Of a stretch of 64,000 nt of DNA, positions 3,553 to 15,086 are shown in pieces. Origin of the DNA: a phage; sequence record OZ335964.1. One strand, given 5' to 3'. Below the pieces are notes generated by a model. The model worked only from the letters and a program-made list of their open reading frames with translations. It was not told the DNA's origin and made no database searches. Within the stretch, counting starts at the first letter, position 1. Every line of letters starts with the position of its first letter. Position numbers and translations under genes: made by a program.

Positions 3553-5604
3553 TTACATTTTAAATTTATCTGGCATAGCGTCTACAGATACCAGATCAGC
3601 GATAAGCTGACGTAGAGTTGCCTTATCTGCTTTCTTACGTTCGGTTTTAGCTTCGGTAATAAAGCTGGAGAAAGACAGGTCAGAAGCAGGTTTAACAACA
3701 CCTTCACGGATGAATGCATCACCGTCCGCGATCATCTCGCCAGATTCTTGTAATGCTGCCAGTTCATTTTTGTTCATAATATGTGCCTCAATGTAATAAG
3801 TTTCTTGTGAATCCGTCGATGCCGTAGCACGAGTTACCGTATCAAAGGATAACACAACACCGCGAGGAAGTAAAATCTCGCATTCTTTGTAAGCAAATGC
3901 TTTGTTACCTACTGGCAATACAGGGATGTTTTCCGCGCCAGCAATGGAGAAAGCAACATTAGCGCCACCTTCACCGCGAGATCCAGCCATAGAATCTACA
4001 CCAGCAACGGCACTAGCCACGTTTGCATTCCAGCCACCAAAAATGTTAGGTGCAAGGGAAGTGCTCACATAGTTTTTAAAGTAAAACGCTTTTTGCTTAC
4101 GTGCAGTTTCCCACATTTGAGACCGGAAGTCCATACCACGATACAGAATAGTACCAGGATCAAGTTTAACGCCATAGTTAGAGAAGGCATTATCCAGTGC
4201 ATCGCACATCTTGACCAATTCTTCTGGATCTGCGATGCCTTCAAACTCTTCCAGCTTACGGTCGGTTAGGAAGTTGTTCATATTGATGTATGCTGCATCG
4301 GCATATTCGCTCAACACAAAACCTTCCGCGCCAGGCAGATCAAGATCAATATCTGCCATCATTTCACCCATGTTGCTAGCAATTGCTTCAAACATACCGG
4401 AAGCAACATTACGTAGGGCATCGGTTTTAATCTGGGTGATATGACTACGCAGCATTTCAGCTTTTACATCTGCTGGCATAGACTGGTCTACTCGATCCAT
4501 TGCCAGTGCGGTGATCTTGTTTTCGAATACTTCCTCGCTCATGATTTCTTTTAAGCGTTTGATTGATGCTGCGATAACTTCCGCAGACAACGGATCATAT
4601 TGATCCTGAACTTTTACCAGTTCACTTACTGCGTATTTTGCATCGGCTTCGCTTTCAAAAATAGTACGCATGAAACCATAGCGAGTGATAATATCACTTG
4701 TCCAGTCATTCAGAGAACGGGCGGTTGAACGTTCTAAGGCTTGACGATCAATCAGAGTATTAAACTGTTTCTTAGGTTCGGCTTCGGTGATATCTTCTTC
4801 CGGTTTAAGATTAATTTTTTCTGGATGATTCACATAGTCGCTGTTATAGGTCGCTTGAGTTTTCAGCATTTCTTCTTTAGTCAAACGAGACTTAGCCGCT
4901 ACACGTTGTTCTGCTTCCGCGTTTCGTTCTTCTTCTGATGCAAGGCTAGCCGCATACGCTTCATCTTTAGTCAGAGATTCACCAGTAGCTTTAGATACCC
5001 AGCGATCACCTAAATCACTTTCTACTTTAGTGAACAGGGAATCATCAAGTTTAATCCCTTTAATCTTATCAATCGACATCCCGCGACGCTTGACAACAAC
5101 TAAAGCGATCTTTTTGCTGGTCATTACTTCCTGCTGGAATACTTCAAACTTAGGAGTACGACGCACCAAACGCTCTATAACGCGCTTAACCAGTTCGGTC
5201 TTACCTTTCATGCGGGATACGTTAAAACGGAACATAACAGCGTCTAATTGCGCTTTACGGGCTGTTTCCATAACCACATCAAAAGCACTTGCCATAACTG
5301 CAATCGGGTTATCGCCTAGACCATTTTTAAGCTGTACAATACGACCGCTTTTGTTCATCTCGCACAGTACAACATGTGCGGTCTTGTCACCCATACGAAT
5401 GATTTTAGGTGTTTTGTTGGTGAAGTTACAAAGACGGACAATCACATCTTTATCGCGTGTCTGTACTGCAAAAAGCTGTTTAGGGTTCTGCTTAGGCTTT
5501 AAGCACTGTACCGGAGCAATACTACCAAAGTTTTCTTCCTCTTCCGTCAACAGCCATTTCTCGAAAGATTCAATCATTAGATCGTCGATTTCTAAGTTAA
5601 ACAT
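3553..5604 (-). CDS. alt: ADP-ribosyltransferase Alt (packaged, modifies host RNA polymerase in T4)
   Basis: 683 aa (T4 Alt 682 aa); C-terminal ART motifs ILYRGM, YVSTSLA, YKECEILLPRG; synteny between 54 and 30. Confidence 0.8.
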   Translation of the reverse strand: MFNLEIDDLMIESFEKWLLTEEEENFGSIAPVQCLKPKQNPKQLFAVQTRDKDVIVRLCNFTNKTPKIIRMGDKTAHVVLCEMNKSGRIVQLKNGLGDNPIAVMASAFDVVMETARKAQLDAVMFRFNVSRMKGKTELVKRVIERLVRRTPKFEVFQQEVMTSKKIALVVVKRRGMSIDKIKGIKLDDSLFTKVESDLGDRWVSKATGESLTKDEAYAASLASEEERNAEAEQRVAAKSRLTKEEMLKTQATYNSDYVNHPEKINLKPEEDITEAEPKKQFNTLIDRQALERSTARSLNDWTSDIITRYGFMRTIFESEADAKYAVSELVKVQDQYDPLSAEVIAASIKRLKEIMSEEVFENKITALAMDRVDQSMPADVKAEMLRSHITQIKTDALRNVASGMFEAIASNMGEMMADIDLDLPGAEGFVLSEYADAAYINMNNFLTDRKLEEFEGIADPEELVKMCDALDNAFSNYGVKLDPGTILYRGMDFRSQMWETARKQKAFYFKNYVSTSLAPNIFGGWNANVASAVAGVDSMAGSRGEGGANVAFSIAGAENIPVLPVGNKAFAYKECEILLPRGVVLSFDTVTRATASTDSQETYYIEAHIMNKNELAALQESGEMIADGDAFIREGVVKPASDLSFSSFITEAKTERKKADKATLRQLIADLVSVDAMPDKFKM

Positions 5605-5645: not shown

Positions 5646-5673
5646 AAAAAAGGGGCTTAACGCCCCCTTTTTA
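5646..5673. terminator. hairpin terminator
   Basis: GGGGC-TTAAC-GCCCC hairpin with flanking A-run/T-run. Confidence 0.55.
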
Positions 5674-5922: not shown

Positions 5923-5951
5923 ATTATAGGGGATCGATGATCCCCTGTCAA
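5923..5951 (-). promoter_or_regulatory. sigma70-type early promoter cassette
   Basis: Minus strand: TTGACA - 17 nt palindromic spacer GGGGATCATCGATCCCC - TATAAT, then conserved leader CCGAAACGAACT and RBS. Confidence 0.6.
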
Positions 5952-5958
5952 CAACTTT

Positions 5959-6477
5959 TTAGTTATTTTTTAATTGCTCATCTTGCAATAAAGCAATCAC
6001 ATGCTGGCGATGTTCTTCCGACTGAGGCACACCGAAAAAGTTTGTTTTGTAGAAATACTCTAATCGGTCTTCTCGTGTGCTCTCTTCCATCATGATCGCG
6101 GGTAGTCCGAGATTTCGGAAACGTCGCTTTTCTGCTGGCGTAAAATCGCTGTAATACAGCATAGAATCATCATTACCAGCAATGCTAAACTCATCCTTCA
6201 TGAAAGAGAATATTGCGTTTAAACGCTGTTTACCGTCCACGATTTCGATCTCATAGCGAGAGCCATCATCAATCTTAGCCATTGCGATAGCACCAACCGG
6301 AAAATCATTAATCAGGTTTTCGATAAACATACGTTTGTTTTCTGTGTCCCATACTAAAGGACGCTGATAATCTGGGTTCATGTTGATAAAGCCATCTTCT
6401 AGCCATGCTTCATAGACAGATATGACAAAGTTTTTAGTATTGGTATAGTAACGGCGTTTAGGCGTTAAACGGTTCAT
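5959..6477 (-). CDS. DUF262/ParB-like domain protein (GmrS N-terminal-domain-like)
   Basis: Motifs DYQRPLVW, FPVG and VDGKQRLNAI (DGQQR-like); start MNRLTPKRR chosen by RBS AGGAGA and coupling to upstream stop (track ORF extends to 6513). Confidence 0.6.
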   Translation of the reverse strand: MNRLTPKRRYYTNTKNFVISVYEAWLEDGFINMNPDYQRPLVWDTENKRMFIENLINDFPVGAIAMAKIDDGSRYEIEIVDGKQRLNAIFSFMKDEFSIAGNDDSMLYYSDFTPAEKRRFRNLGLPAIMMEESTREDRLEYFYKTNFFGVPQSEEHRQHVIALLQDEQLKNN

Positions 6478-6811: not shown

Positions 6812-7572
6812 AGATCCTTATTGGCTTCAAATACTGCCTTTGCGAATCCTCGCGGGGTAAGTGACCTGATAGTCTTTGTTCTGGTTCCTTTCCCGCCTAG
6901 CTTAGAATGCTGTTTACTGTACCCTTTCTCAATCGGCAACGGTTTCTTTTCTGGCATTATAAAGCCTTGTCCGGTCCATAAGCAAGTCTTTTTCGGGTAC
7001 ATATCACGGGCGGCAATATACTCAGGAAACGTAGGATGTATATCATCTTCCGGCAAATAACCGCCATATTCCCACGGGTGGAACATGTAATCAGGCTTAC
7101 GCCACATGCTAGAGATAACGCTTACAGGATTCTCTATCATGTAGGGAACTCCTAGCCATTCACCCAAATAAGCTGTTATTTTAGCTGCCCGTACATCATG
7201 AACTTGAATTAATGGTCCTTGCTCTCGTTTCTTTCGTTCAAAGTGTGCAGCGCCACTAACAGCTAAATTTGAACAGCTAGGAAACGCAAAGATCATATCC
7301 GGTTTGCCCCATTCAAGATCCATCGCCCTTTCCAACCAATCCAGATCTATCCATGAATTAACATAAGTTAAATTTGGGTGTTCAAATCGAGTGTTATACT
7401 TTTTATATGTTCCATGATCGGCATCATCAGCATTAAAGCAGATCACTTTATGACCTGCTTTAGCCCATTCTAGACCCATAATACCGGACCCATCGAATGT
7501 ACAAAATATAAGTTTACTTTCCGTGGTTTTCATGATAGCCATACTCTCTTTCTGCTTTGGTTCTAACTGCAA
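6808..7572 (-). CDS. SAM-dependent methyltransferase-like protein with C5-cytosine-MTase-type motifs
   Basis: 254 aa; FDGSGIMG (motif I FxGxG), FAFPSCS (motif IV Pro-Cys), MIENPVS (motif VI ENV-like) with canonical spacing; no obvious TRD or motifs VIII-X, so function uncertain. Confidence 0.45.
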   Translation of the reverse strand: MQLEPKQKESMAIMKTTESKLIFCTFDGSGIMGLEWAKAGHKVICFNADDADHGTYKKYNTRFEHPNLTYVNSWIDLDWLERAMDLEWGKPDMIFAFPSCSNLAVSGAAHFERKKREQGPLIQVHDVRAAKITAYLGEWLGVPYMIENPVSVISSMWRKPDYMFHPWEYGGYLPEDDIHPTFPEYIAARDMYPKKTCLWTGQGFIMPEKKPLPIEKGYSKQHSKLGGKGTRTKTIRSLTPRGFAKAVFEANKDL

Positions 7573-8050
7573 CGGCTTCTTCTAGTGTGTCGAAACACCC
7601 TAGATATTTTCTATCACCGCGTCGACCGCCGCCAATTCTAACTACCCATTTATTGTATTTGTTTTTATGTATTCCACTATGTCCGCTTGTATTCTTTTTA
7701 GACTTTGTTTGATTTCTCATGTTGTCGCGGTGTAGTTTAAGTTCAAAGTTAACCGCTCTATTATCTGTCTTAATGTGATTAATATGATCTACTTCATATC
7801 CTTCTGGTATAGGTCCATTGTGGATAATATAACATACTCGATGAACTTTGTAGTTAATAATTTTACCGTCAATTTTTATTGACGATTCAAGATAACGTCC
7901 ACCACTTCCTAGTGACCCGACCTCCTTTCCAGCCCATGCAGCATTCCATTGTTTTATTCTTGATGGGTGTATATCTGTTCTCTCCTTCCATGTAAGGATA
8001 CCAGTGTCAGGATCATAATTAAAGTATTTCTTCCAGTCTATATTGTTCAC
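7514..8050 (-). CDS. HNH homing endonuclease with AP2-like DNA-binding domain
   Basis: 178 aa; HNH_3-type motif VDHINHIKTDNRAVNFEL plus AP2-like SGHSGIHKNKYNKWVVRIGGGRRGDRKYLGCFDTLEEAVAVR. Confidence 0.75.
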   Translation of the reverse strand: MNNIDWKKYFNYDPDTGILTWKERTDIHPSRIKQWNAAWAGKEVGSLGSGGRYLESSIKIDGKIINYKVHRVCYIIHNGPIPEGYEVDHINHIKTDNRAVNFELKLHRDNMRNQTKSKKNTSGHSGIHKNKYNKWVVRIGGGRRGDRKYLGCFDTLEEAVAVRTKAEREYGYHENHGK

Positions 8051-8338: not shown

Positions 8339-8368
8339 ATTGTAGGGGATCTCCCGATCCCCTGTCAA
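8339..8368 (-). promoter_or_regulatory. sigma70-type early promoter cassette
   Basis: TTGACA - 18 nt palindromic spacer GGGGATCGGGAGATCCCC - TACAAT on minus strand. Confidence 0.55.
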
Positions 8369-8381
8369 CAACTTTTTTAGA

Positions 8382-8855
8382 TTATTTGCACCAAATTCGA
8401 ATTATTTCGTCTCGTTCAAATTTCTGCCAGATTACTCGGTCACCCGCTGCCATGATACTGACAAATCCAGTTGTGTTTCCTGTGTACTTGCTTTTAGTCT
8501 CGGCATCATATTCAAAGAATGGTGCTTTAAGATCGCTAAACTCATCTTTTCCCACAAACTTCATAACATGACGATGCGCGTAATATTCGCTTCTTAGTGT
8601 TGTTGTGATAGTTCCGTCATTATTTGATTTCAGATGTAATTCTGCATCTTCATAAAGACTTGCATCTCGTTGTTTACTTTCAATACCGTCGTTATATGTT
8701 GATTTCGTTGCACTCCAACATTGATAAGTTTTATCAACATTTTCGATCTTTTCCTGTGTCATATCAAAAAGCGGTGCAACCTTTTTCTTAGCCGCGTGTG
8801 CTACGTTGGTCATGGACAGTGCTGCAACAACCACAATAGCAATAATCTTCTTCAT
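8382..8855 (-). CDS. secreted/periplasmic protein, unknown function
   Basis: 157 aa; N-terminal signal peptide MKKIIAIVVVAALSMTNVAHA. Confidence 0.6.
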   Translation of the reverse strand: MKKIIAIVVVAALSMTNVAHAAKKKVAPLFDMTQEKIENVDKTYQCWSATKSTYNDGIESKQRDASLYEDAELHLKSNNDGTITTTLRSEYYAHRHVMKFVGKDEFSDLKAPFFEYDAETKSKYTGNTTGFVSIMAAGDRVIWQKFERDEIIRIWCK

Positions 8856-8919: not shown

Positions 8920-9201
8920 TTATTCGTGATTAGTTTCGATGTTATACATTTTGCACCAGTTCAGCCAATCGCCCAGATCTTGATAGTTGATGCTTTTATC
9001 TGCTGCCATCGTTTTGGTCTTGATACCCATATGTGCGTTATGAGTAAGCATTTTTACAGTGAACTCAATTTTATCGCCTTTAGCTTTAACATCAACCAGT
9101 TTGGTCCACTGGCTACCAGCGCCGCGAATGTTCATACCAACGATGTTTCCGATGTATGCTTCTTTGTTTTTCAGGATTTCGGTTGCTTTGATGAATTTCA
9201 T
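8920..9201 (-). CDS. hypothetical protein
   Basis: 93 aa ORF with RBS and promoter cassette upstream. Confidence 0.5.
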   Translation of the reverse strand: MKFIKATEILKNKEAYIGNIVGMNIRGAGSQWTKLVDVKAKGDKIEFTVKMLTHNAHMGIKTKTMAADKSINYQDLGDWLNWCKMYNIETNHE

Positions 9202-9234
9202 TTTTGATTCTCCAGTTCGTTTCGGTATGGGTGT

Positions 9235-9263
9235 ATTATGCTATGTTCTTACTTTGGTGTCAA
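9235..9263 (-). promoter_or_regulatory. sigma70-type early promoter cassette
   Basis: TTGACA - 17 nt - CATAAT on minus strand, followed by conserved leader and RBS. Confidence 0.5.
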
Positions 9264-9270
9264 CAACTTT

Positions 9271-9540
9271 TTAGATATTTTCAGAAATAAATTTTAAAAC
9301 TTGACGTAAATGTTTCTCATCTTTGATAGTCGCCGGAAGTTCTTCTTTTACTTCCTGTGCAAGATAGATATTTCCGTTCCAAGTGAAAGATCCGTCTTCG
9401 TTTACGCGATAGCTGAACATCCACTCGCAATCATTTTCGATTTCATATACACACAGAAGGGTGTAATCGTTAAAGCTATTGATTTCAAGGTCGAAGCCGT
9501 GACGTTTTGCAAAGTTGGTAGTGGTTTTAGTCAGTGCCAT
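9271..9540 (-). CDS. hypothetical protein
   Basis: 89 aa; shares near-identical leader/RBS with the 8047..8298 gene. Confidence 0.5.
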   Translation of the reverse strand: MALTKTTTNFAKRHGFDLEINSFNDYTLLCVYEIENDCEWMFSYRVNEDGSFTWNGNIYLAQEVKEELPATIKDEKHLRQVLKFISENI

Positions 9541-9580
9541 TGTTTGATTCTCCTAAGTGGTATCTCGTTTCGATGGGTGT

Positions 9581-9609
9581 ATTATGCTATACACAGGATC
9601 TGGTGTCAA
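9581..9609 (-). promoter_or_regulatory. sigma70-type early promoter cassette
   Basis: TTGACA - 17 nt - CATAAT on minus strand. Confidence 0.5.
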
Positions 9610-9633
9610 TGCCTTTTTTAAAAATTTTGGCAA

Positions 9634-9659
9634 TAAAAAAGCCGACACTAAGGTCGGCT
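9634..9659 (-). terminator. rho-independent terminator
   Basis: GCCGAC-ACTAAG-GTCGGC hairpin followed on minus strand by T-run. Confidence 0.6.
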
Positions 9660-9666
9660 AATAAAA

Positions 9667-9975
9667 TCAACGAGATAGATAATCGTTTTGCGCGATCTGG
9701 TCGGCGTATGCTGGTGTTATGTCAATCGCCAACACTTTAACGCGTGCTTTCTTGCGACCTGGGTTTTCTCGTAACCAGTGCTCATGACCGTGCACATTTT
9801 TATATTTTGATGCGGTTTCGAAGGTACGGATCGGACCTGGATAATCTGCGTAAAGGATCTCTAGGTCTTCGGTGATGTAAAAATATACATCATAATTACT
9901 GTTCTCTAGTTTAAGCAGAGAATTGCGAAATTGTGGTAAATTCTCGCGGGTAAATTCAACTACAAGATTTTTCAT
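9667..9975 (-). CDS. HxHW/AVDV paralogue family member 1
   Basis: 102 aa from MKNLVVEF (RBS GAGGA upstream); track ORF's 49-aa extension runs through a terminator hairpin; motifs YFYITEDLEI, HGHEHW, VLAIDI. Confidence 0.55.
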   Translation of the reverse strand: MKNLVVEFTRENLPQFRNSLLKLENSNYDVYFYITEDLEILYADYPGPIRTFETASKYKNVHGHEHWLRENPGRKKARVKVLAIDITPAYADQIAQNDYLSR

Positions 9976-9997
9976 AGTGATATCCTCATTCAGATAG

Positions 9998-10022
9998 ATT
10001 AAAAGGGGCTTAATGCCCCCTA
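9998..10022 (-). terminator. rho-independent terminator
   Basis: AGGGGC-TTAAT-GCCCCT hairpin with minus-strand T-run. Confidence 0.55.
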
Positions 10023-10024
10023 TA

Positions 10025-10312
10025 TTAAAACAGTCCTTCCTGTACACCGTAGTAGAGTTCATCGCTGATAATTTCATTAATGCGACGGTGTGCATATTCC
10101 TGATTTGCGAAGTTGTCAGCAAGTTCTACTTTAGTTTCGCCGTCATGAGTCCATTTAGTGATAACTTTACCATCTGCAAATTTGAAGTTGAACTCTTTAG
10201 CTACCGCATCGCGTACCAGACATGCAAACTTGTTGTTGCGGATTGCATTATCGGTTTCGTGTGCAGCGTGAGCAAATTTGTTAACTTTCAGAGTGATAGT
10301 AATGTATGCCAT
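10025..10312 (-). CDS. hypothetical protein
   Basis: 95 aa ORF with cassette promoter and RBS. Confidence 0.5.
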   Translation of the reverse strand: MAYITITLKVNKFAHAAHETDNAIRNNKFACLVRDAVAKEFNFKFADGKVITKWTHDGETKVELADNFANQEYAHRRINEIISDELYYGVQEGLF

Positions 10313-10358
10313 AATTTGATTCTCCTAGTTAGAAAGTGTATCTCGTTTCGATGGGTGT

Positions 10359-10387
10359 ATTATGCTATACACCCGATCCGGTGTCAA
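10359..10387 (-). promoter_or_regulatory. sigma70-type early promoter cassette
   Basis: TTGACA - 17 nt - CATAAT on minus strand. Confidence 0.5.
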
Positions 10388-10394
10388 CAACTTT

Positions 10395-10688
10395 TTATAA
10401 AATAATTTTTTGATATTTTTCTATGATGTTCGTGTAATTCACATCAACCGCTATCACCGTTGCTTCGAATCCACCGTTTAGCCAATGGCTATGGTCATGA
10501 TCGTGAAAGAAACCAAGACCAGTGCGAAGACCTTCTTTATATTCGGCGCGTACATTTAGAGAATCGTCGATAAACAGATAAAACCATGAATTTTTACTAG
10601 GATTGATGATACAACCTTTCAGATTAGGGAGAATATCACGACTAAGAATAAACTTATCACCTACTTTGAACATAATATTAGTCCTCAC
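10395..10688 (-). CDS. HxHW/AVDV paralogue family member 2
   Basis: 97 aa; FYLFIDDSLNV, HDHDHSHW, VIAVDV. Confidence 0.55.
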   Translation of the reverse strand: MRTNIMFKVGDKFILSRDILPNLKGCIINPSKNSWFYLFIDDSLNVRAEYKEGLRTGLGFFHDHDHSHWLNGGFEATVIAVDVNYTNIIEKYQKIIL

Positions 10689-10998
10689 TTATAAGGTCAA
10701 ACCAATTGTTTTTCGCATAATGCTTAATGCGTGCTTGATCTGCTTCCGCTGGTGATAGATTCCATGCAACCACTACAACTTCTGACGCATCGTCATCCGT
10801 TTCTGATACCCAATGATTGTGATTCATACAGTTATTTGCGATCGAGTGAGCAAATGATTTCATCACTGGAGACGTATAATCATAGTAACGGATTTTCAGA
10901 TTTTCATCAACGTACAAATAGATCGTATAAGGTTTATATTCAGTAACCAGTAACAGACAGTTACGCAATTCTGGGAAAATATTTTTAGTTAATTTCAT
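10678..10998 (-). CDS. HxHW/AVDV paralogue family member 3
   Basis: 106 aa; IYLYVDENLKI, NHNHW, VVVVAW; N-terminus similar to member 1. Confidence 0.55.
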   Translation of the reverse strand: MKLTKNIFPELRNCLLLVTEYKPYTIYLYVDENLKIRYYDYTSPVMKSFAHSIANNCMNHNHWVSETDDDASEVVVVAWNLSPAEADQARIKHYAKNNWFDLISED

Positions 10999-11200
10999 AT
11001 TCTAGTTCTCCGTAATATACGGTAATCCATTTTTCTTCATACTTTGTATCTTTCCAACACACAATCCCGTTTACTGTGCAATCTTTGGAATTGACGAATG
11101 ATTCATATTGTTCTGCATCTTCCATCATTGCATGAGCGGTCTTTTCATCGAATATATCGCAGATCGCTTTATATGCTCGATAATCTTTAAATTTGCTCAT
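10985..11200 (-). CDS. hypothetical small protein, tandem duplicate A
   Basis: Starts MSKFKDYRAYK (track ORF has 4 extra codons); paralogue of adjacent 11203..11412 (MSKFKDYKAY...MMEDA). Confidence 0.5.
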   Translation of the reverse strand: MSKFKDYRAYKAICDIFDEKTAHAMMEDAEQYESFVNSKDCTVNGIVCWKDTKYEEKWITVYYGELEYEIN

Positions 11201-11202
11201 AA

Positions 11203-11412
11203 TTAAGACCACTCAAGAGTTTTTGAAAACACATCTATCCATTGTTGAGTATATGCGGTTTCTTTCCATGATACAATACCAGTCGAATAATGGTTTTTGT
11301 TTCCAGAAAAGGACGGGCATTTTGATGCATCTTCCATCATCTTTTCGGCGAACTCCGCGTCATATACCCGCAGGATCTGTTGATATGCTTTATAATCTTT
11401 AAATTTGCTCAT
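11203..11412 (-). CDS. hypothetical small protein, tandem duplicate B
   Basis: 69 aa; paralogue of 10985..11200. Confidence 0.5.
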   Translation of the reverse strand: MSKFKDYKAYQQILRVYDAEFAEKMMEDASKCPSFSGNKNHYSTGIVSWKETAYTQQWIDVFSKTLEWS

Positions 11413-11677
11413 AATTGTTAACTACCTTATCAGCTTCTTTTATTGTTTTTACATCAACTGCGATAATCCGTAAAGGTTCGTCGAAGGTCCACCAATGATC
11501 GTGAATATCGGCTTGTGATTTATCACCAAAGGAATCACGAATATCATTTTTACATTTATAGCTAATGTGACCTTCATAGTCAACATAAAGGTAATTATCG
11601 AAAATCGGCGTTTTTAAGATCATACCGAAAAATCTTTCTTTGTGTGTCTTATCCAGTGTTGCAGTAATTCGCATCAT
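11399..11677 (-). CDS. HxHW/AVDV paralogue family member 4
   Basis: 92 aa; LYVDYEGHISY, HDHW, IIAVDV. Confidence 0.55.
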   Translation of the reverse strand: MMRITATLDKTHKERFFGMILKTPIFDNYLYVDYEGHISYKCKNDIRDSFGDKSQADIHDHWWTFDEPLRIIAVDVKTIKEADKVVNNYEQI

Positions 11678-11689
11678 AATATATTCCTC

Positions 11690-11869
11690 TTAGAAAGGGA
11701 TGGTCATTTCTTGAGCTTGTACATTCTCGTTAGGATTAAACTTCATCCAACCGATATTGTCTACCAGCATATGTACATTTTTATCATATCCTACGTGAGT
11801 AGTCAACACTAAATGTGCTTTACCTTCAACGATGATTTCCATGTACTTCTGAACTTCGATAGCTTTCAT
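11690..11869 (-). CDS. small ORF (59 aa), below track threshold
   Basis: Hand-translated MKAIEVQKYMEIIVEGKAHLVLTTHVGYDKNVHMLVDNIGWMKFNPNENVQAQEMTIPF; RBS GGAGAATCAAAA and promoter cassette directly upstream. Confidence 0.4.
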   Translation of the reverse strand: MKAIEVQKYMEIIVEGKAHLVLTTHVGYDKNVHMLVDNIGWMKFNPNENVQAQEMTIPF

Positions 11870-11902
11870 TTTTGATTCTCCGTTTGTTGTCTTGATGGGA
11901 GT

Positions 11903-11931
11903 ATCTTACTACTCCCTTTAATCATTGTCAA
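11903..11931 (-). promoter_or_regulatory. early promoter cassette
   Basis: TTGACA - 17 nt - TAAGAT; -10 inside GGGAGTA..TACTCCC hairpin. Confidence 0.5.
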
Positions 11932-11934
11932 CTA

Positions 11935-12102
11935 TTATTTGTTAATTTCTGGTGCGTTGCTCGGATAGTAACCTTCTTTAACACCTAGATATTTTGCAAC
12001 CATTCCGGGGATCTTCTGTGCTACTACGATATCGAATTTCAGGTAGTCTTCACCGTGGTTTGCTACAATGTATGCTTCGCATTCTGCTTTAGTCTGGAAC
12101 AT
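11935..12102 (-). CDS. hypothetical small protein
   Basis: 55 aa from MFQTK with RBS AGGAGAATAAAA; track ORF's extension uses a GTG that overlaps the promoter -10 TATAAT. Confidence 0.45.
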   Translation of the reverse strand: MFQTKAECEAYIVANHGEDYLKFDIVVAQKIPGMVAKYLGVKEGYYPSNAPEINK

Positions 12103-12135
12103 TTTTATTCTCCTATATCTCGTTGGTATGTGTGC

Positions 12136-12164
12136 ATTATAGGGGATCACCGATCCCCTGTCAA
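12136..12164 (-). promoter_or_regulatory. sigma70-type early promoter cassette
   Basis: TTGACA - 17 nt palindromic spacer GGGGATCGGTGATCCCC - TATAAT on minus strand. Confidence 0.6.
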
Positions 12165-12169
12165 CAACT

Positions 12170-12463
12170 TTATAATGCTTTATATGCGTATTTCATAAAT
12201 TTGTCTGCCACTTCATTGGCATGTTCAGATTCTACGCCTGATTCGAGAACAATAGCTAGGTCGGTTTCGTCATTCCCGCCGTACCAATGATTTGATGTTC
12301 GATTTTTTTCAATTGGAAATTGGTCACTTTTATCTGTGCGACAAAATACATCTAAATGCTCGTCGATGTAAAAGATCCAATCCTCATAAAGAATAACGGT
12401 ATTAGCCAGATTTTTATTACCTTCAACGAAAGGTTCGGCTACAAACAAATTAGTATGTTCCAT
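12170..12463 (-). CDS. HxHW/AVDV paralogue family member 5
   Basis: 97 aa; IFYIDEHLDV, SNHW, LAIVLE. Confidence 0.5.
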   Translation of the reverse strand: MEHTNLFVAEPFVEGNKNLANTVILYEDWIFYIDEHLDVFCRTDKSDQFPIEKNRTSNHWYGGNDETDLAIVLESGVESEHANEVADKFMKYAYKAL

Positions 12464-12520
12464 AGTATTTTCCTCAATTTGTGGGAGAGTATTGCCCCTC
12501 CCGATGATTGTTATATTATA

Positions 12521-12841
12521 TCACACAAAATGGCGTGTCAATGCTTCTTTTGCGGTTCCGCTAAGACTTTCGATCTCGCCTGGCATAACATCAACTGCCA
12601 GAACTTCTACAACATCCTCTGATCCTAACCAGTGAGTATGACCTTTGTAGAACTTGATAACCAGACTACCTTCCTCGTCCCATTTAACGCTATCGCTAGC
12701 CCACCACACATCACCGTCGATAAAGTTGATGTAAAGCACACTACGCCACATTGAATTAATTACTTTCAATACTGCGCCTTTCATCTCTTCCACGGTGTGG
12801 TCTTCCATTTTGAAGACCTCACCTACCTGAACTTTTGCCAT
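12521..12841 (-). CDS. HxHW/AVDV paralogue family member 6
   Basis: 106 aa; LYINFIDGDV, HTHW, VLAVDV. Confidence 0.55.
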   Translation of the reverse strand: MAKVQVGEVFKMEDHTVEEMKGAVLKVINSMWRSVLYINFIDGDVWWASDSVKWDEEGSLVIKFYKGHTHWLGSEDVVEVLAVDVMPGEIESLSGTAKEALTRHFV

Positions 12842-12858
12842 TTAGTCACCTCTCTTTA

Positions 12859-13038
12859 TTACATAACAATCACGCCAGCCGTTGAAAGTTGATGTTTCAA
12901 CTGAGCATTTTCTGCTACTGTCAAATCAATGATTTCTTGTGACGCTGCAATCATATAACCATTGGTGATATTGTTTTGCATCAGTTCAATGGTTTCTTCG
13001 TTGTAGCGGATTTTAGCGATGATTTCGTTGAAGTTCAT
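12859..13038 (-). CDS. small ORF (59 aa), below track threshold
   Basis: Hand-translated MNFNEIIAKIRYNEETIELMQNNITNGYMIAASQEIIDLTVAENAQLKHQLSTAGVIVM; RBS and promoter cassette upstream. Confidence 0.4.
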   Translation of the reverse strand: MNFNEIIAKIRYNEETIELMQNNITNGYMIAASQEIIDLTVAENAQLKHQLSTAGVIVM

Positions 13039-13072
13039 GTTTGATTCTCCTAGTTCGTTTCGGTATGTGTGT

Positions 13073-13101
13073 AGTATAGGGGATCACCGATCCCCTGTCA
13101 A
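13073..13101 (-). promoter_or_regulatory. sigma70-type early promoter cassette
   Basis: TTGACA - 17 nt palindromic spacer GGGGATCGGTGATCCCC - TATACT. Confidence 0.55.
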
Positions 13102-13114
13102 CAACTTTTTTGAA

Positions 13115-13591
13115 TTATTTTTCTTGATGCTCGCGCTCGTACTTTTCGAAATAAAATTCTACTGGCTGGTCGTGGATTGACAGTAAGCCAAAGCGTTTAG
13201 CCGCTCGCAACCCCATATTGCGCTGAATGTACTTCTGGAAGTTCTCGCGTATACACTTACGCCAGTATTCTAAGCCCATACAGCTTTTATAAAGATTGCA
13301 TTGCACACACGCCGGATTCATGTTATCAAGTATATCATGCTCCGGTTTATGCATTCCTACAACCTTATACTTCCACGATCCATCATCATTACGGGCAATT
13401 CGTCCATTTTCATCATAGACTACTTTTGAGCGTCGTAATACTGGTTTGATGTGGTCTGCGTGCCAGCGATCCCCTAGTTCCTCGCCACAATAGGCACAAT
13501 GTCCACCATATTTCATTTTCAGGATCTGGCGTTGCTCTTTCTTTGACAATTTTTTAGGTTTAGGGGCTTTCGCCCCTTCATTATCACACAT
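13115..13591 (-). CDS. HNH-motif zinc-finger endonuclease-like protein
   Basis: 158 aa; CAYCG ... HADHIKP ... N ... CVQCN: canonical HNH Cys/His pattern; stop coupled to ligase start. Confidence 0.55.
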   Translation of the reverse strand: MCDNEGAKAPKPKKLSKKEQRQILKMKYGGHCAYCGEELGDRWHADHIKPVLRRSKVVYDENGRIARNDDGSWKYKVVGMHKPEHDILDNMNPACVQCNLYKSCMGLEYWRKCIRENFQKYIQRNMGLRAAKRFGLLSIHDQPVEFYFEKYEREHQEK

Positions 13592-15086
13592 CGAATACCT
13601 CTTTTACTGTATTTGCAGTGGTCTTGTCGTAGCGAATACGTTTGATGATCGGGAGAAATAAAGAGAACTCCGGTTCATCTTCTTTACGTGATTTGCTGCG
13701 GATATACCCGTTGCATGTCATCTCAATGACTTTTCCAATCAGGTTATGACGGTCAGCCCATAACATTTCTCGGTCAAGTTCATTTCGACGATCGAACGGA
13801 ATTACACGTTCGATACCATCATCACCTTTTTCGGTTGTAGTGTCGGTTAATCCCGATCCGGTGTTAGTCATCATTCGTCCACACGCACTACGGACAGTAA
13901 AACCGCCTACCTTATTGGGGTCTTTACTATGCGGATATACATCAACAATTTCCGCGTCGAAGTCAATCACTTCTTTAAATTTAACCTGATCTTTACTACG
14001 GCGATCTTCAAATACACCATGCAGATTTTTAAGGATAATACCTTCTAAGCCCATGTTTACATAGCGATGATATACTTCGCGAGCTTCATCGATATTGTTA
14101 ACTACAGTATTTTCGATTATCTGAACACGAGGATCGTTAAGTTCTTCAACAATCTGTTTTAGTTCTTCGAATCGATCTTTATATTGCTTCGTTGCTTTCT
14201 CGTTTCCGTAATACACATCACGGTCGATAACATCCCAGACAGTGTAAACAATACATTGGGCTTCTTCTTTTGGAATAGTTCCTTTCAGTGATTTGTTGAG
14301 GATACCATTTCCGGTCTGACGATCTGCAACAACGGATTCTTTTACTGCTTCCGCTACTGGCGTTAATGGTATTTCCTCTTCTTCAAATATCCATGACAGA
14401 GTACCATCATAAACGCTCTCAACGAAGTTCTGCGCTGGTGTTTGCGAAAGGGTAGGCATATATACCAATTCGCCATCTAGAACAATTCCACGGCCTCGTA
14501 GACGCTCTAAAACAGAAAACAAATCATCCAGCCCCTGGTAGGTATTACCTGAACGGGTATATATTGCTAATGTTTCCCCGTCAATATCAGCCATACCACG
14601 AGCGCCATCACTTTTAAGTTGTGCATATGCCGGATATTTGATATTAGCAATAGCCTTATCAGAATATGACGATGCAAGGTGGCATGGTTGCTGGGGGATC
14701 AGTTTCTTCCATACCTTGTTTGAAGTGGTAGCGGAACAACCGCATTCCAGATCACGATTCAGGACCATCATTGCAACTTTAGCATCATCTTCTGACAAGC
14801 AAGTCAGAGTATCGGTAACTAGCTGTAATGCTGCATTACCAGTTACTTGACGCGTGGCAAGTTTATTTTTAAAGACCTGCAATGCACCGGATAAAGACAA
14901 TACAGACGAATAGCGCGATGGTTTATCGTATTTCTTTACGCCAAACGTAACCTGTTTGCAATATGCCAGATAAAAGCATTCTTTCAGCGTTTCATTGCTT
15001 GCAGATTCTTTCAGGATCTTTTCTTTCAGCGATGTTTTGTCGGTCGCTGCAAGCTGGTTAATGATATTAAGAATTGACATTTTCAC
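13584..15086 (-). CDS. 30: ATP-dependent DNA ligase
   Basis: 500 aa (T4 gp30 487 aa); adenylation motif I KSDGARG; synteny alt...30...31. Confidence 0.9.
   Translation of the reverse strand: MKMSILNIINQLAATDKTSLKEKILKESASNETLKECFYLAYCKQVTFGVKKYDKPSRYSSVLSLSGALQVFKNKLATRQVTGNAALQLVTDTLTCLSEDDAKVAMMVLNRDLECGCSATTSNKVWKKLIPQQPCHLASSYSDKAIANIKYPAYAQLKSDGARGMADIDGETLAIYTRSGNTYQGLDDLFSVLERLRGRGIVLDGELVYMPTLSQTPAQNFVESVYDGTLSWIFEEEEIPLTPVAEAVKESVVADRQTGNGILNKSLKGTIPKEEAQCIVYTVWDVIDRDVYYGNEKATKQYKDRFEELKQIVEELNDPRVQIIENTVVNNIDEAREVYHRYVNMGLEGIILKNLHGVFEDRRSKDQVKFKEVIDFDAEIVDVYPHSKDPNKVGGFTVRSACGRMMTNTGSGLTDTTTEKGDDGIERVIPFDRRNELDREMLWADRHNLIGKVIEMTCNGYIRSKSRKEDEPEFSLFLPIIKRIRYDKTTANTVKEVFDV

Follow-up and report, generated by a model that had tools for sequence, protein, structure and literature searches.

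Six small genes of a T4-type phage, here called p1 to p6, constitute one ancient paralogous family of soluble proteins of 90-106 amino acids (aa), and their products are probably dispensable proteins of early host interaction. The genes lie between those for DNA ligase (gp30) and the ADP-ribosyltransferase Alt in a 64,000-nucleotide stretch of phage DNA (sequence record OZ335964.1), the whole of which is called the window below. The window belongs to a Krischvirus (an RB49-like, T4-type coliphage): across bases 9000-13500 it shares 92-96% identity with about 59 phages in GenBank, every one a Krischvirus, among them RB49, Phi1, JSE, ELT3 and SFHK24, T4-type myoviruses that infect E. coli and Shigella. 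The hundreds of early genes without known homologues (ORFans) in T4-type phages form their chief store of functions for host takeover and anti-defence. The family consists of accessory ORFan genes of the T4-type hyperplastic region; its members were already known as hypothetical proteins, most of them held in separate orphan families of the PHROGs database.

All six open reading frames (ORFs), which a preliminary description had picked out within 3.2 kb, were recovered on the minus strand, which holds all genes of the region and every gene and promoter given below with window coordinates; all six are annotated as ORFs in RB49. The three motifs of the family read YFYIT, HEHW and LAIDI in p1 (9667..9975, 102 aa; RB49 ORF197c, PHROG 9345), which has a GAGG Shine-Dalgarno sequence upstream; YLFID, HSHW and IAVDV in p2 (10395..10673, 92 aa; ORF199c, PHROG 17255); YLYVD, HNHW and VAWNL in p3 (10678..10998, 106 aa; ORF200c, PHROG 9345); YLYVD, HDHW and IAVDV in p4 (11399..11677, 92 aa; ORF203c, PHROG 15972); IFYID, SNHW and VLESGV in p5 (12170..12463, 97 aa, net charge -11; ORF206c, PHROG 15965); and LYINF, HTHW and LAVDV in p6 (12521..12841, 106 aa, net charge -8; ORF208c, PHROG 16486). 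The most diverged member is p5, whose orthologues read HNHW where the window copy reads SNHW. The start codon of p2 is most likely the ATG at 10673, which gives the 92-aa protein, rather than the GTG at 10688, because the PHROG 17255 alignment begins at residue 6 of the longer form, the RB49 ORF199c annotation is 279 nucleotides (nt) long, and a GAGG lies about 9 nt upstream of that ATG. A GAGG-type ribosome-binding site stands 6-9 nt upstream of the ATG in each of the six genes, and such sites, together with purifying selection and conservation in about 59 GenBank genomes, show that these are expressed-looking genes. The window proteins are 94-100% identical to their RB49 orthologues and match their own PHROGs with E-values of 1e-48 to 1e-72. 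Their isoelectric points range from 4.5 to 6.8 and their net charges from about 0 to -11. Neither a signal peptide nor a membrane segment can be seen in the family sequences, and no further family member was found in the window.

The six proteins align end to end (MAFFT) with the three motifs in register, so the objection that the shared motifs resemble one another by chance fails. The His and Trp that end the HxHW motif are invariant in the six, in 24 of 24 sequences when orthologues are added and in 28 of 28 when distant members are included, and the first His and a Tyr in strand beta3 are each kept in 26 of the 28. Pairwise comparison alone could still be taken to favour chance or shared composition, and no family at all: paralogue identity is 15-35%, only p1 and p3 are convincingly similar by BLAST (35% identity over 89 aa, 55 bits), the remaining paralogue pairs are weak alone (15-29 bits), and PHROGs divides the six among five families, uniting p1 with p3 (9345) and filing p4 and p5 separately. 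Against this, weak cross-matches tie p2, p3 and p6 to PHROGs 9345 and 17255, and a leave-one-out test, in which a hidden Markov model (HMM) built from five members was scanned against the 629 stop-to-stop ORFs of the window, detected every member. The omitted protein was the best non-training ORF in every run (E-values of 1.6e-9 for p1, 7.6e-7 for p2, 1.1e-12 for p3, 1.4e-4 for p4, 1.1e-3 for p5 and 5.5e-6 for p6), and the next-best ORF of the window never did better than 0.12.

The predicted fold is likewise common to the members. AlphaFold2, run on family alignments for p2 and p6, gave models with a predicted local distance difference test (pLDDT) score of 85.5 and a predicted template-modelling (pTM) score of 0.80 for p2, and of 92.1 and 0.86 for p6. 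Both models have secondary-structure elements in identical order: strand beta1, a short helix alpha1, beta2, a beta3/beta4 hairpin, a variable loop, a helical turn with HxHW, beta5 and a C-terminal helix alpha3. The Y-L-Y-I-D motif is carried by beta3, V-L-A-V-D-V forms beta5, and the loop before HxHW is modelled with lower confidence. When the p2 model was searched against BFVD, the significant matches were Krischvirus paralogues only, whose models, predicted independently, matched at template-modelling (TM) scores of 0.63-0.72. The models thus show a compact alpha/beta fold common to the family as predicted. Alignment in register, leave-one-out HMMs and the shared predicted fold together back the homology of the six and their origin by duplication, as the preliminary description had supposed; chance similarity, to which we would give almost no probability, is refuted by the leave-one-out HMMs and the structural matches.

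Relatives occur in other phages, and all of them belong to Krischvirus or to a few close uncultured relatives, to which the family is confined. A profile search of a 5.8-billion-protein collection returned 83 clusters, each sharing 69% identity or more with a member of the six, and an exhaustive HMMER scan of 1.84 billion representatives gave 22 matches, which, artefacts aside, comprise alleles of the orthologues and some dozen metagenomic members that are more distant. Searching 50,697 GenBank phages by tblastn with two distant members recovered Krischvirus only, and searches of IMG/VR with single distant members found nothing. Two long proteins among the matches were rejected: P0093 (1034 aa, MAM-like repeats) and P0098 (1573 aa, RCC1 repeats) are artefacts that both reached a family E-value below 1e-5 only through the summing of many weak repeats, the best single domain of P0093 scoring 8.3 bits and P0098 not being recovered with the A3 profile; their repeat patterns read 'FYMD...HSHTW...VAIEV' and 'YYISENGDVYVSG'.

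Wherever a contig is long enough, the family stands between ligase gp30 and alt. On a 20 kb contig with a ligase 72% identical to that of the window, two p5-type members lie there, and Krischvirus-like contigs of 168-170 kb hold alternative alleles. The most informative relative is a 2.1 kb metagenomic contig (SRR8048117_15661; L002), in which five family domains occupy four adjacent genes in the order p6-type, fused double domain, p4-type and p3-type. The fused gene (P0085, L002:823-1434) is a natural fusion of two family domains into one protein of 203 aa, followed by the two single-domain members. The p6-, p4- and p3-type genes of this contig are 49%, 38% and 43% identical to their window counterparts; because these types are recognisable there while paralogues are 15-35% identical to one another, the duplications predate the split of the L002 lineage.

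This age bears on a model built on the preliminary description, in which repeated duplication, taken to be recent, was followed by diversifying (positive) selection from variable host targets. Such a model would suit six copies packed into 3.2 kb, the concentration of variation and of some insertions and deletions (indels) in one loop within orthologue groups, and the p1 and p5 alleles that are 70-83% identical in genomes otherwise about 94-98% identical. Within orthologue groups substitutions do cluster in the loop before HxHW, which has indels in p2, p4 and p6 and one gapped position in p1. However, the ratio of nonsynonymous to synonymous substitution rates (dN/dS; Nei-Gojobori, orthologues from 7-11 Krischvirus genomes) is 0.12-0.22 for each family gene, with a JSE paralogue left out of the p3 comparison, and is 0.23 in the variable loop against 0.18 for the rest; for comparison, it is 0.03 for ligase and 0.01-0.24 for neighbouring small ORFs. 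A p3 value of 0.79 proved to be an artefact of including the JSE p3-like paralogue, p3 orthologues alone giving 0.11-0.20. Each copy is therefore under purifying selection, its variable loop included. The divergent alleles differ by very high dS (0.35 in p1 and 0.79 in p5, where the ligase backbone has about 0.09), which points to old alleles exchanged by recombination and not to rapid adaptive change. The model is accordingly disfavoured, and we would give it a low probability: the claim of repeated duplication stands, with the duplications ancient rather than recent, while that of diversifying selection does not.

All sampled genomes with the full set of six keep one gene order (p6-p5-p4-p3-p2-p1), but the set itself changes. 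In JSE-type phages two p3-like genes, 45-54% identical to p3, occupy the p3 and p2 slots, and p1 and p5 are frameshifted (split in JSE). Escherichia phage FL04 (L012 6528-7661) has kept only p6 and p5, the genes p4, p3, p2 and p1 being gone together with the genes interleaved among them; in this phage ORF207 and p5 read as a single 172-aa ORF. Since natural phages lack four of the six (FL04) or carry frameshifted copies (JSE), we infer that the family genes are dispensable accessory genes. G37-3, JSE and relatives also have an 88-aa gene beside p6 (L001:8416-8682 in G37-3; L008:3854-4120, EpJSE_00215, in JSE; also in L017 and L019) that is absent from the window. Its product aligns with the family profile end to end (hhalign P about 5e-4), keeps IIYVTEDDVY and LLAHSV and has lost HxHW, reading GHLI instead, and the JSE model C4MZ33, presumably the same protein, matches the family fold at TM 0.63-0.65; the gene looks like a degenerate seventh member. 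An hhalign comparison of the family profile with the remaining ORFs from the region of the window, additional RB49 ORFs and small T4 proteins turned up this 88-aa protein and nothing else.

The family genes are set among early-type promoters. Intergenic repeats of the region are PeSL cassettes, elements described in RB49 and Phi1 by Arbiol et al. 2010 (PMC2839356), in which a GGGGATC...GATCCCC hairpin lies between the hexamers of TTGACA-17-TATAAT; five copies score 11-12 of 12 against the sigma-70 consensus, and their flanks are conserved. A PeSL-type early promoter at 13073..13101 (TTGACA-17-TATACT with the GGGGATC...GATCCCC hairpin) heads orf59 and leads into p6. PeSL206/205 (12136..12164), a perfect TTGACA-17-TATAAT with internal hairpin, lies directly downstream of p5 and heads a unit with p4, p3 and p2; in a lacZ reporter its RB49 namesake gave about 13,000 Miller units (PMC2839356). 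Another PeSL-type early promoter (10359..10387) is directly downstream of p2, and two more PeSL-type promoters, recognised by repeat and consensus, are at 9581-9609 and 9235-9263. A sigma-70-like promoter, identified by consensus match only, occupies the 3' end of p6 just upstream of p5 (12513..12541) and is followed by a GGGAG...CTCCC hairpin. On the same strand a terminator-like hairpin, AGGGGGCATTAAGCCCCT, with a T-run, stands at 10004..10021, 28 nt upstream of the p1 start codon, and a second at 9640..9659, downstream of p1. This arrangement suggests three units: orf59-p6, with the further promoter-like site in front of p5; ORF205-orf59b-p4-orf69-orf75-p3-p2; and orf95-(hairpin)-p1-(hairpin). 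To judge from the promoter sequences, host sigma-70 RNA polymerase would begin to transcribe the family genes from the PeSL promoters as soon as the cell is infected. Elsewhere in the window the cassette (35-76 nt) recurs at about 8354-8387 and 5937-5970; PeSL-like cassettes are often followed by a conserved leader, 'TAGGAGAATCAAACAATG'; and two nearly identical 21-nt terminator hairpins (AAAAGGGGCTTAA[C/T]GCCCCCT) occupy 5648-5668, downstream of alt, and 10001-10021, upstream of p1.

We favour, tentatively and at a little under even chances, the reading that, early in infection, the six proteins serve as a panel of small binding modules with different ligands, from the host or linked to defence, and that they may act as dimers. 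The early-promoter context, the natural dispensability and the small, soluble proteins suggest it by analogy, as do the strict His-Trp, the near-invariant His, Tyr and Asp/Asn positions with an indel-tolerant loop beside them, and the six long-kept, individually constrained paralogues with their natural tandem fusion. Each paralogue would be a cytoplasmic module on a common scaffold, in which a conserved polar and aromatic patch adjoins the indel-prone loop. The patch would comprise the invariant His-Trp and the flanking Asp/Asn positions, along with the first His and the Tyr of beta3, both of them near-invariant; patch and loop may together engage a different host or defence-related ligand (protein, nucleotide or metal) in each paralogue. 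Six old, individually conserved copies argue for a panel of specificities and not for recent amplification, and the two-domain fusion P0085 suggests that the modules act as dimers or hetero-oligomers. Several points weigh against the binding-module panel. Its early timing comes from promoter consensus and one RB49 reporter assay, literature searches for transcript data on these genes found none, and p1, between its two terminator-like hairpins, has no recognisable promoter of its own; oligomerisation is deduced from a single fusion protein; proteins in a fast arms race would be expected to show a higher dN/dS than the values found, which stay under 0.25 even in the loop; no homologue or structural neighbour that bears a function was found; and a small metalloenzyme would suit the conserved His/Asp pattern equally well.

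That last possibility ranks next, as an unlikely rival: the proteins would be small metal-dependent enzymes whose divalent metal is bound by the two His of HxH together with the Asp that follows beta3 and the Asp/Asn that follows beta5. They would act, by hydrolysis or another modification, on nucleic-acid ends or on small molecules (immune signalling nucleotides, for instance), and their substrates would differ by paralogue. The second His is present in 28 of 28 sequences and the first in 26, Asp follows beta3 in 22 of 28 and Asp/Asn follows beta5 in 26 of 28, and in both models these residues lie at strand ends or the helix start, as ligand-binding residues often do. But several conserved paralogues have Asn, Thr, Gly or His at the acidic positions (Thr in p1, Asn in p6 and p3), the first His is absent from the window p5 and from P0086, and no enzyme family in Pfam, NCBIfam or the PDB matches. 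The conserved His residues, to which the preliminary description had ascribed possible metal binding, are thus compatible with a metal site but not decisive, as the Asp positions vary to Asn or Thr. Slightly less likely again is that the six assemble into one hetero-oligomeric complex, or have a structural or regulatory role such as modulating transcription or the adjacent Alt, instead of binding different targets independently; the constant gene order, the fusion P0085 and the constant position next to alt speak for this. Such a complex of fixed stoichiometry is hard to reconcile with the loss of four of the six genes in FL04, the p3-type gene in place of p2 and the disrupted p1 and p5 in JSE-type phages, and locus L004, which has two members only, both p5-type, because these changes would not be tolerated. 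Returning to the binding modules, an unlikely but consequential extension is that they form a hitherto unrecognised class of counter-defence proteins of phages, with a small fold that is new, and that a different host immune component or signalling molecule is sequestered or destroyed by each paralogue through the invariant His-Trp pocket. RB49 DNA is not known to carry cytosine modification, and such a class would amount to a six-fold anti-defence panel for cytosine-unmodified RB49-like phages.

Searches for known relatives gave no firmer assignment. The predicted fold has no significant PDB neighbour, and searches of Pfam, NCBIfam, PADLOC and PDB sequences yielded sub-threshold noise only (PROCT, TTL, Cupin_2, T4_Y03C, Spindlin and amidohydrolase). 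Weak structural matches that recurred for both models were Cif, PPIP5K, AcrIIA7, the Tas1 immunity protein and ModTad2. Since two DUF2829 anti-defence proteins were among these, a DUF2829 alignment was built from six phages; membership in DUF2829 (PF11195), whose proteins include the anti-Thoeris Tad2 and the anti-CRISPR AcrIIA7, was rejected on sequence profiles (no PF11195 match at E up to 10 in 28 members, and an hhalign probability of 0.15% against the purpose-built alignment). SH3-like barrels of the KOW/Tudor/Spindlin kind resemble the N-terminal 'KVGDKF..LKG.II....Y..IDD' of p2 and p6, one metagenomic p2 orthologue was automatically named 'KOW2-KOW3 domains of Spt5', and the family profile matches Spindlin-4 at E 0.066; neither the models, examined for a five-stranded barrel, nor Pfam, searched for KOW or Tudor, support that name or the Spindlin match. 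Many members read H-N-H-W, but a test for an HNH endonuclease, which would combine a beta-beta-alpha metal finger with spaced His...Asn...His and a Pfam HNH match, was negative. The T4 proteins of the corresponding region (alt.1, 30.1-30.9, 31.1/31.2 and cd.1-cd.3) all gave P of at least 0.1 against the family profile (hhalign).

The surrounding interval is a variable accessory region of the phage genome, the hyperplastic gp30-alt interval. In order of transcription it begins with DNA ligase gp30 (13584-15086), whose 3' end is overlapped by a gene for a 158-aa HNH endonuclease (13115-13591; annotated as HNH in related genomes, with a faint PF01844 match), continues through about 20 small ORFs and ends at Alt (3553-5604). 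T4 has only one small gene (alt.1) separating alt from gene 30, and the interval is therefore a lineage-specific hyperplastic region. Between p4 and p3 is a second, unrelated tandem paralogue pair, at 10985-11212 and 11203-11412: orf75 and orf69 (75 and 69 aa) both begin MSKFKDY... and are 47% identical (E 6e-22), and alleles of orf75 are very deep between genomes (44-98% identity, dS about 1.0). RB49 ORF207c, between p6 and p5, is absent from the window (12464-12520), as are ORF210c/211c, between the HNH gene and orf59 (13039-13114), the RB49 stretches compared with these being L007 2896-3657 and 4305-4496; these presence/absence differences fall at or beside promoter/hairpin elements. Further downstream, a 157-aa ORF (8382-8855) with an N-terminal signal-peptide-like sequence (MKKIIAIVVVAALSMTNVAHA) corresponds by size and position to RB49 ORF192c, a PeSL-flanked mobile ORFan that serves as an example in PMC2839356, and a 178-aa protein (7514-8050) has a His-rich motif, 'DHINHIKTDNR', that is HNH-like by eye only.

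Five PHROGs of unknown function are here merged into one structurally coherent, lineage-restricted family with an invariant H-W signature. Its deletion and replacement variants, two-domain fusion and confident fold make it a compact target for anti-defence screens, pull-downs and structure determination, and FL04 offers a natural deletion mutant for p4-p1. Diversification of the hyperplastic region appears here as exchange of old alleles and swapping of paralogue slots, not as rapid arms races by point mutation. Even if the proteins prove ordinary, the annotation is corrected (one family; a different p2 start), and the significance would rise substantially if anti-defence or signalling-molecule activity were demonstrated.

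PHROGs 9345, 17255, 15972, 15965 and 16486 and RB49 ORF197c, 199c, 200c, 203c, 206c and 208c are the same proteins as those described here. The PHROGs treat them as five unrelated orphan families, all labelled 'unknown function', and their records mention neither function nor paralogy; literature searches for paralogy or an anti-defence role of these genes returned nothing relevant, and no paper was found that assigns them a function or treats them as one family. The closest described system is that of the ORFans of T4-type hyperplastic regions with PeSL cassettes (PMC2839356; PMC4122927), which shares with the present one the phage group, the region and the promoter/hairpin cassettes, and the gene-content differences between Krischvirus genomes fit the modular shuffling described for PeSL-flanked ORFans (PMC2839356; PMC4122927). 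By contrast, that work deals with regulatory cassettes and unique ORFans, whereas the family here is multi-copy, and most of its members lack the individual PeSL bracketing of those ORFans, with p4, p3 and p2 joined in one unit.

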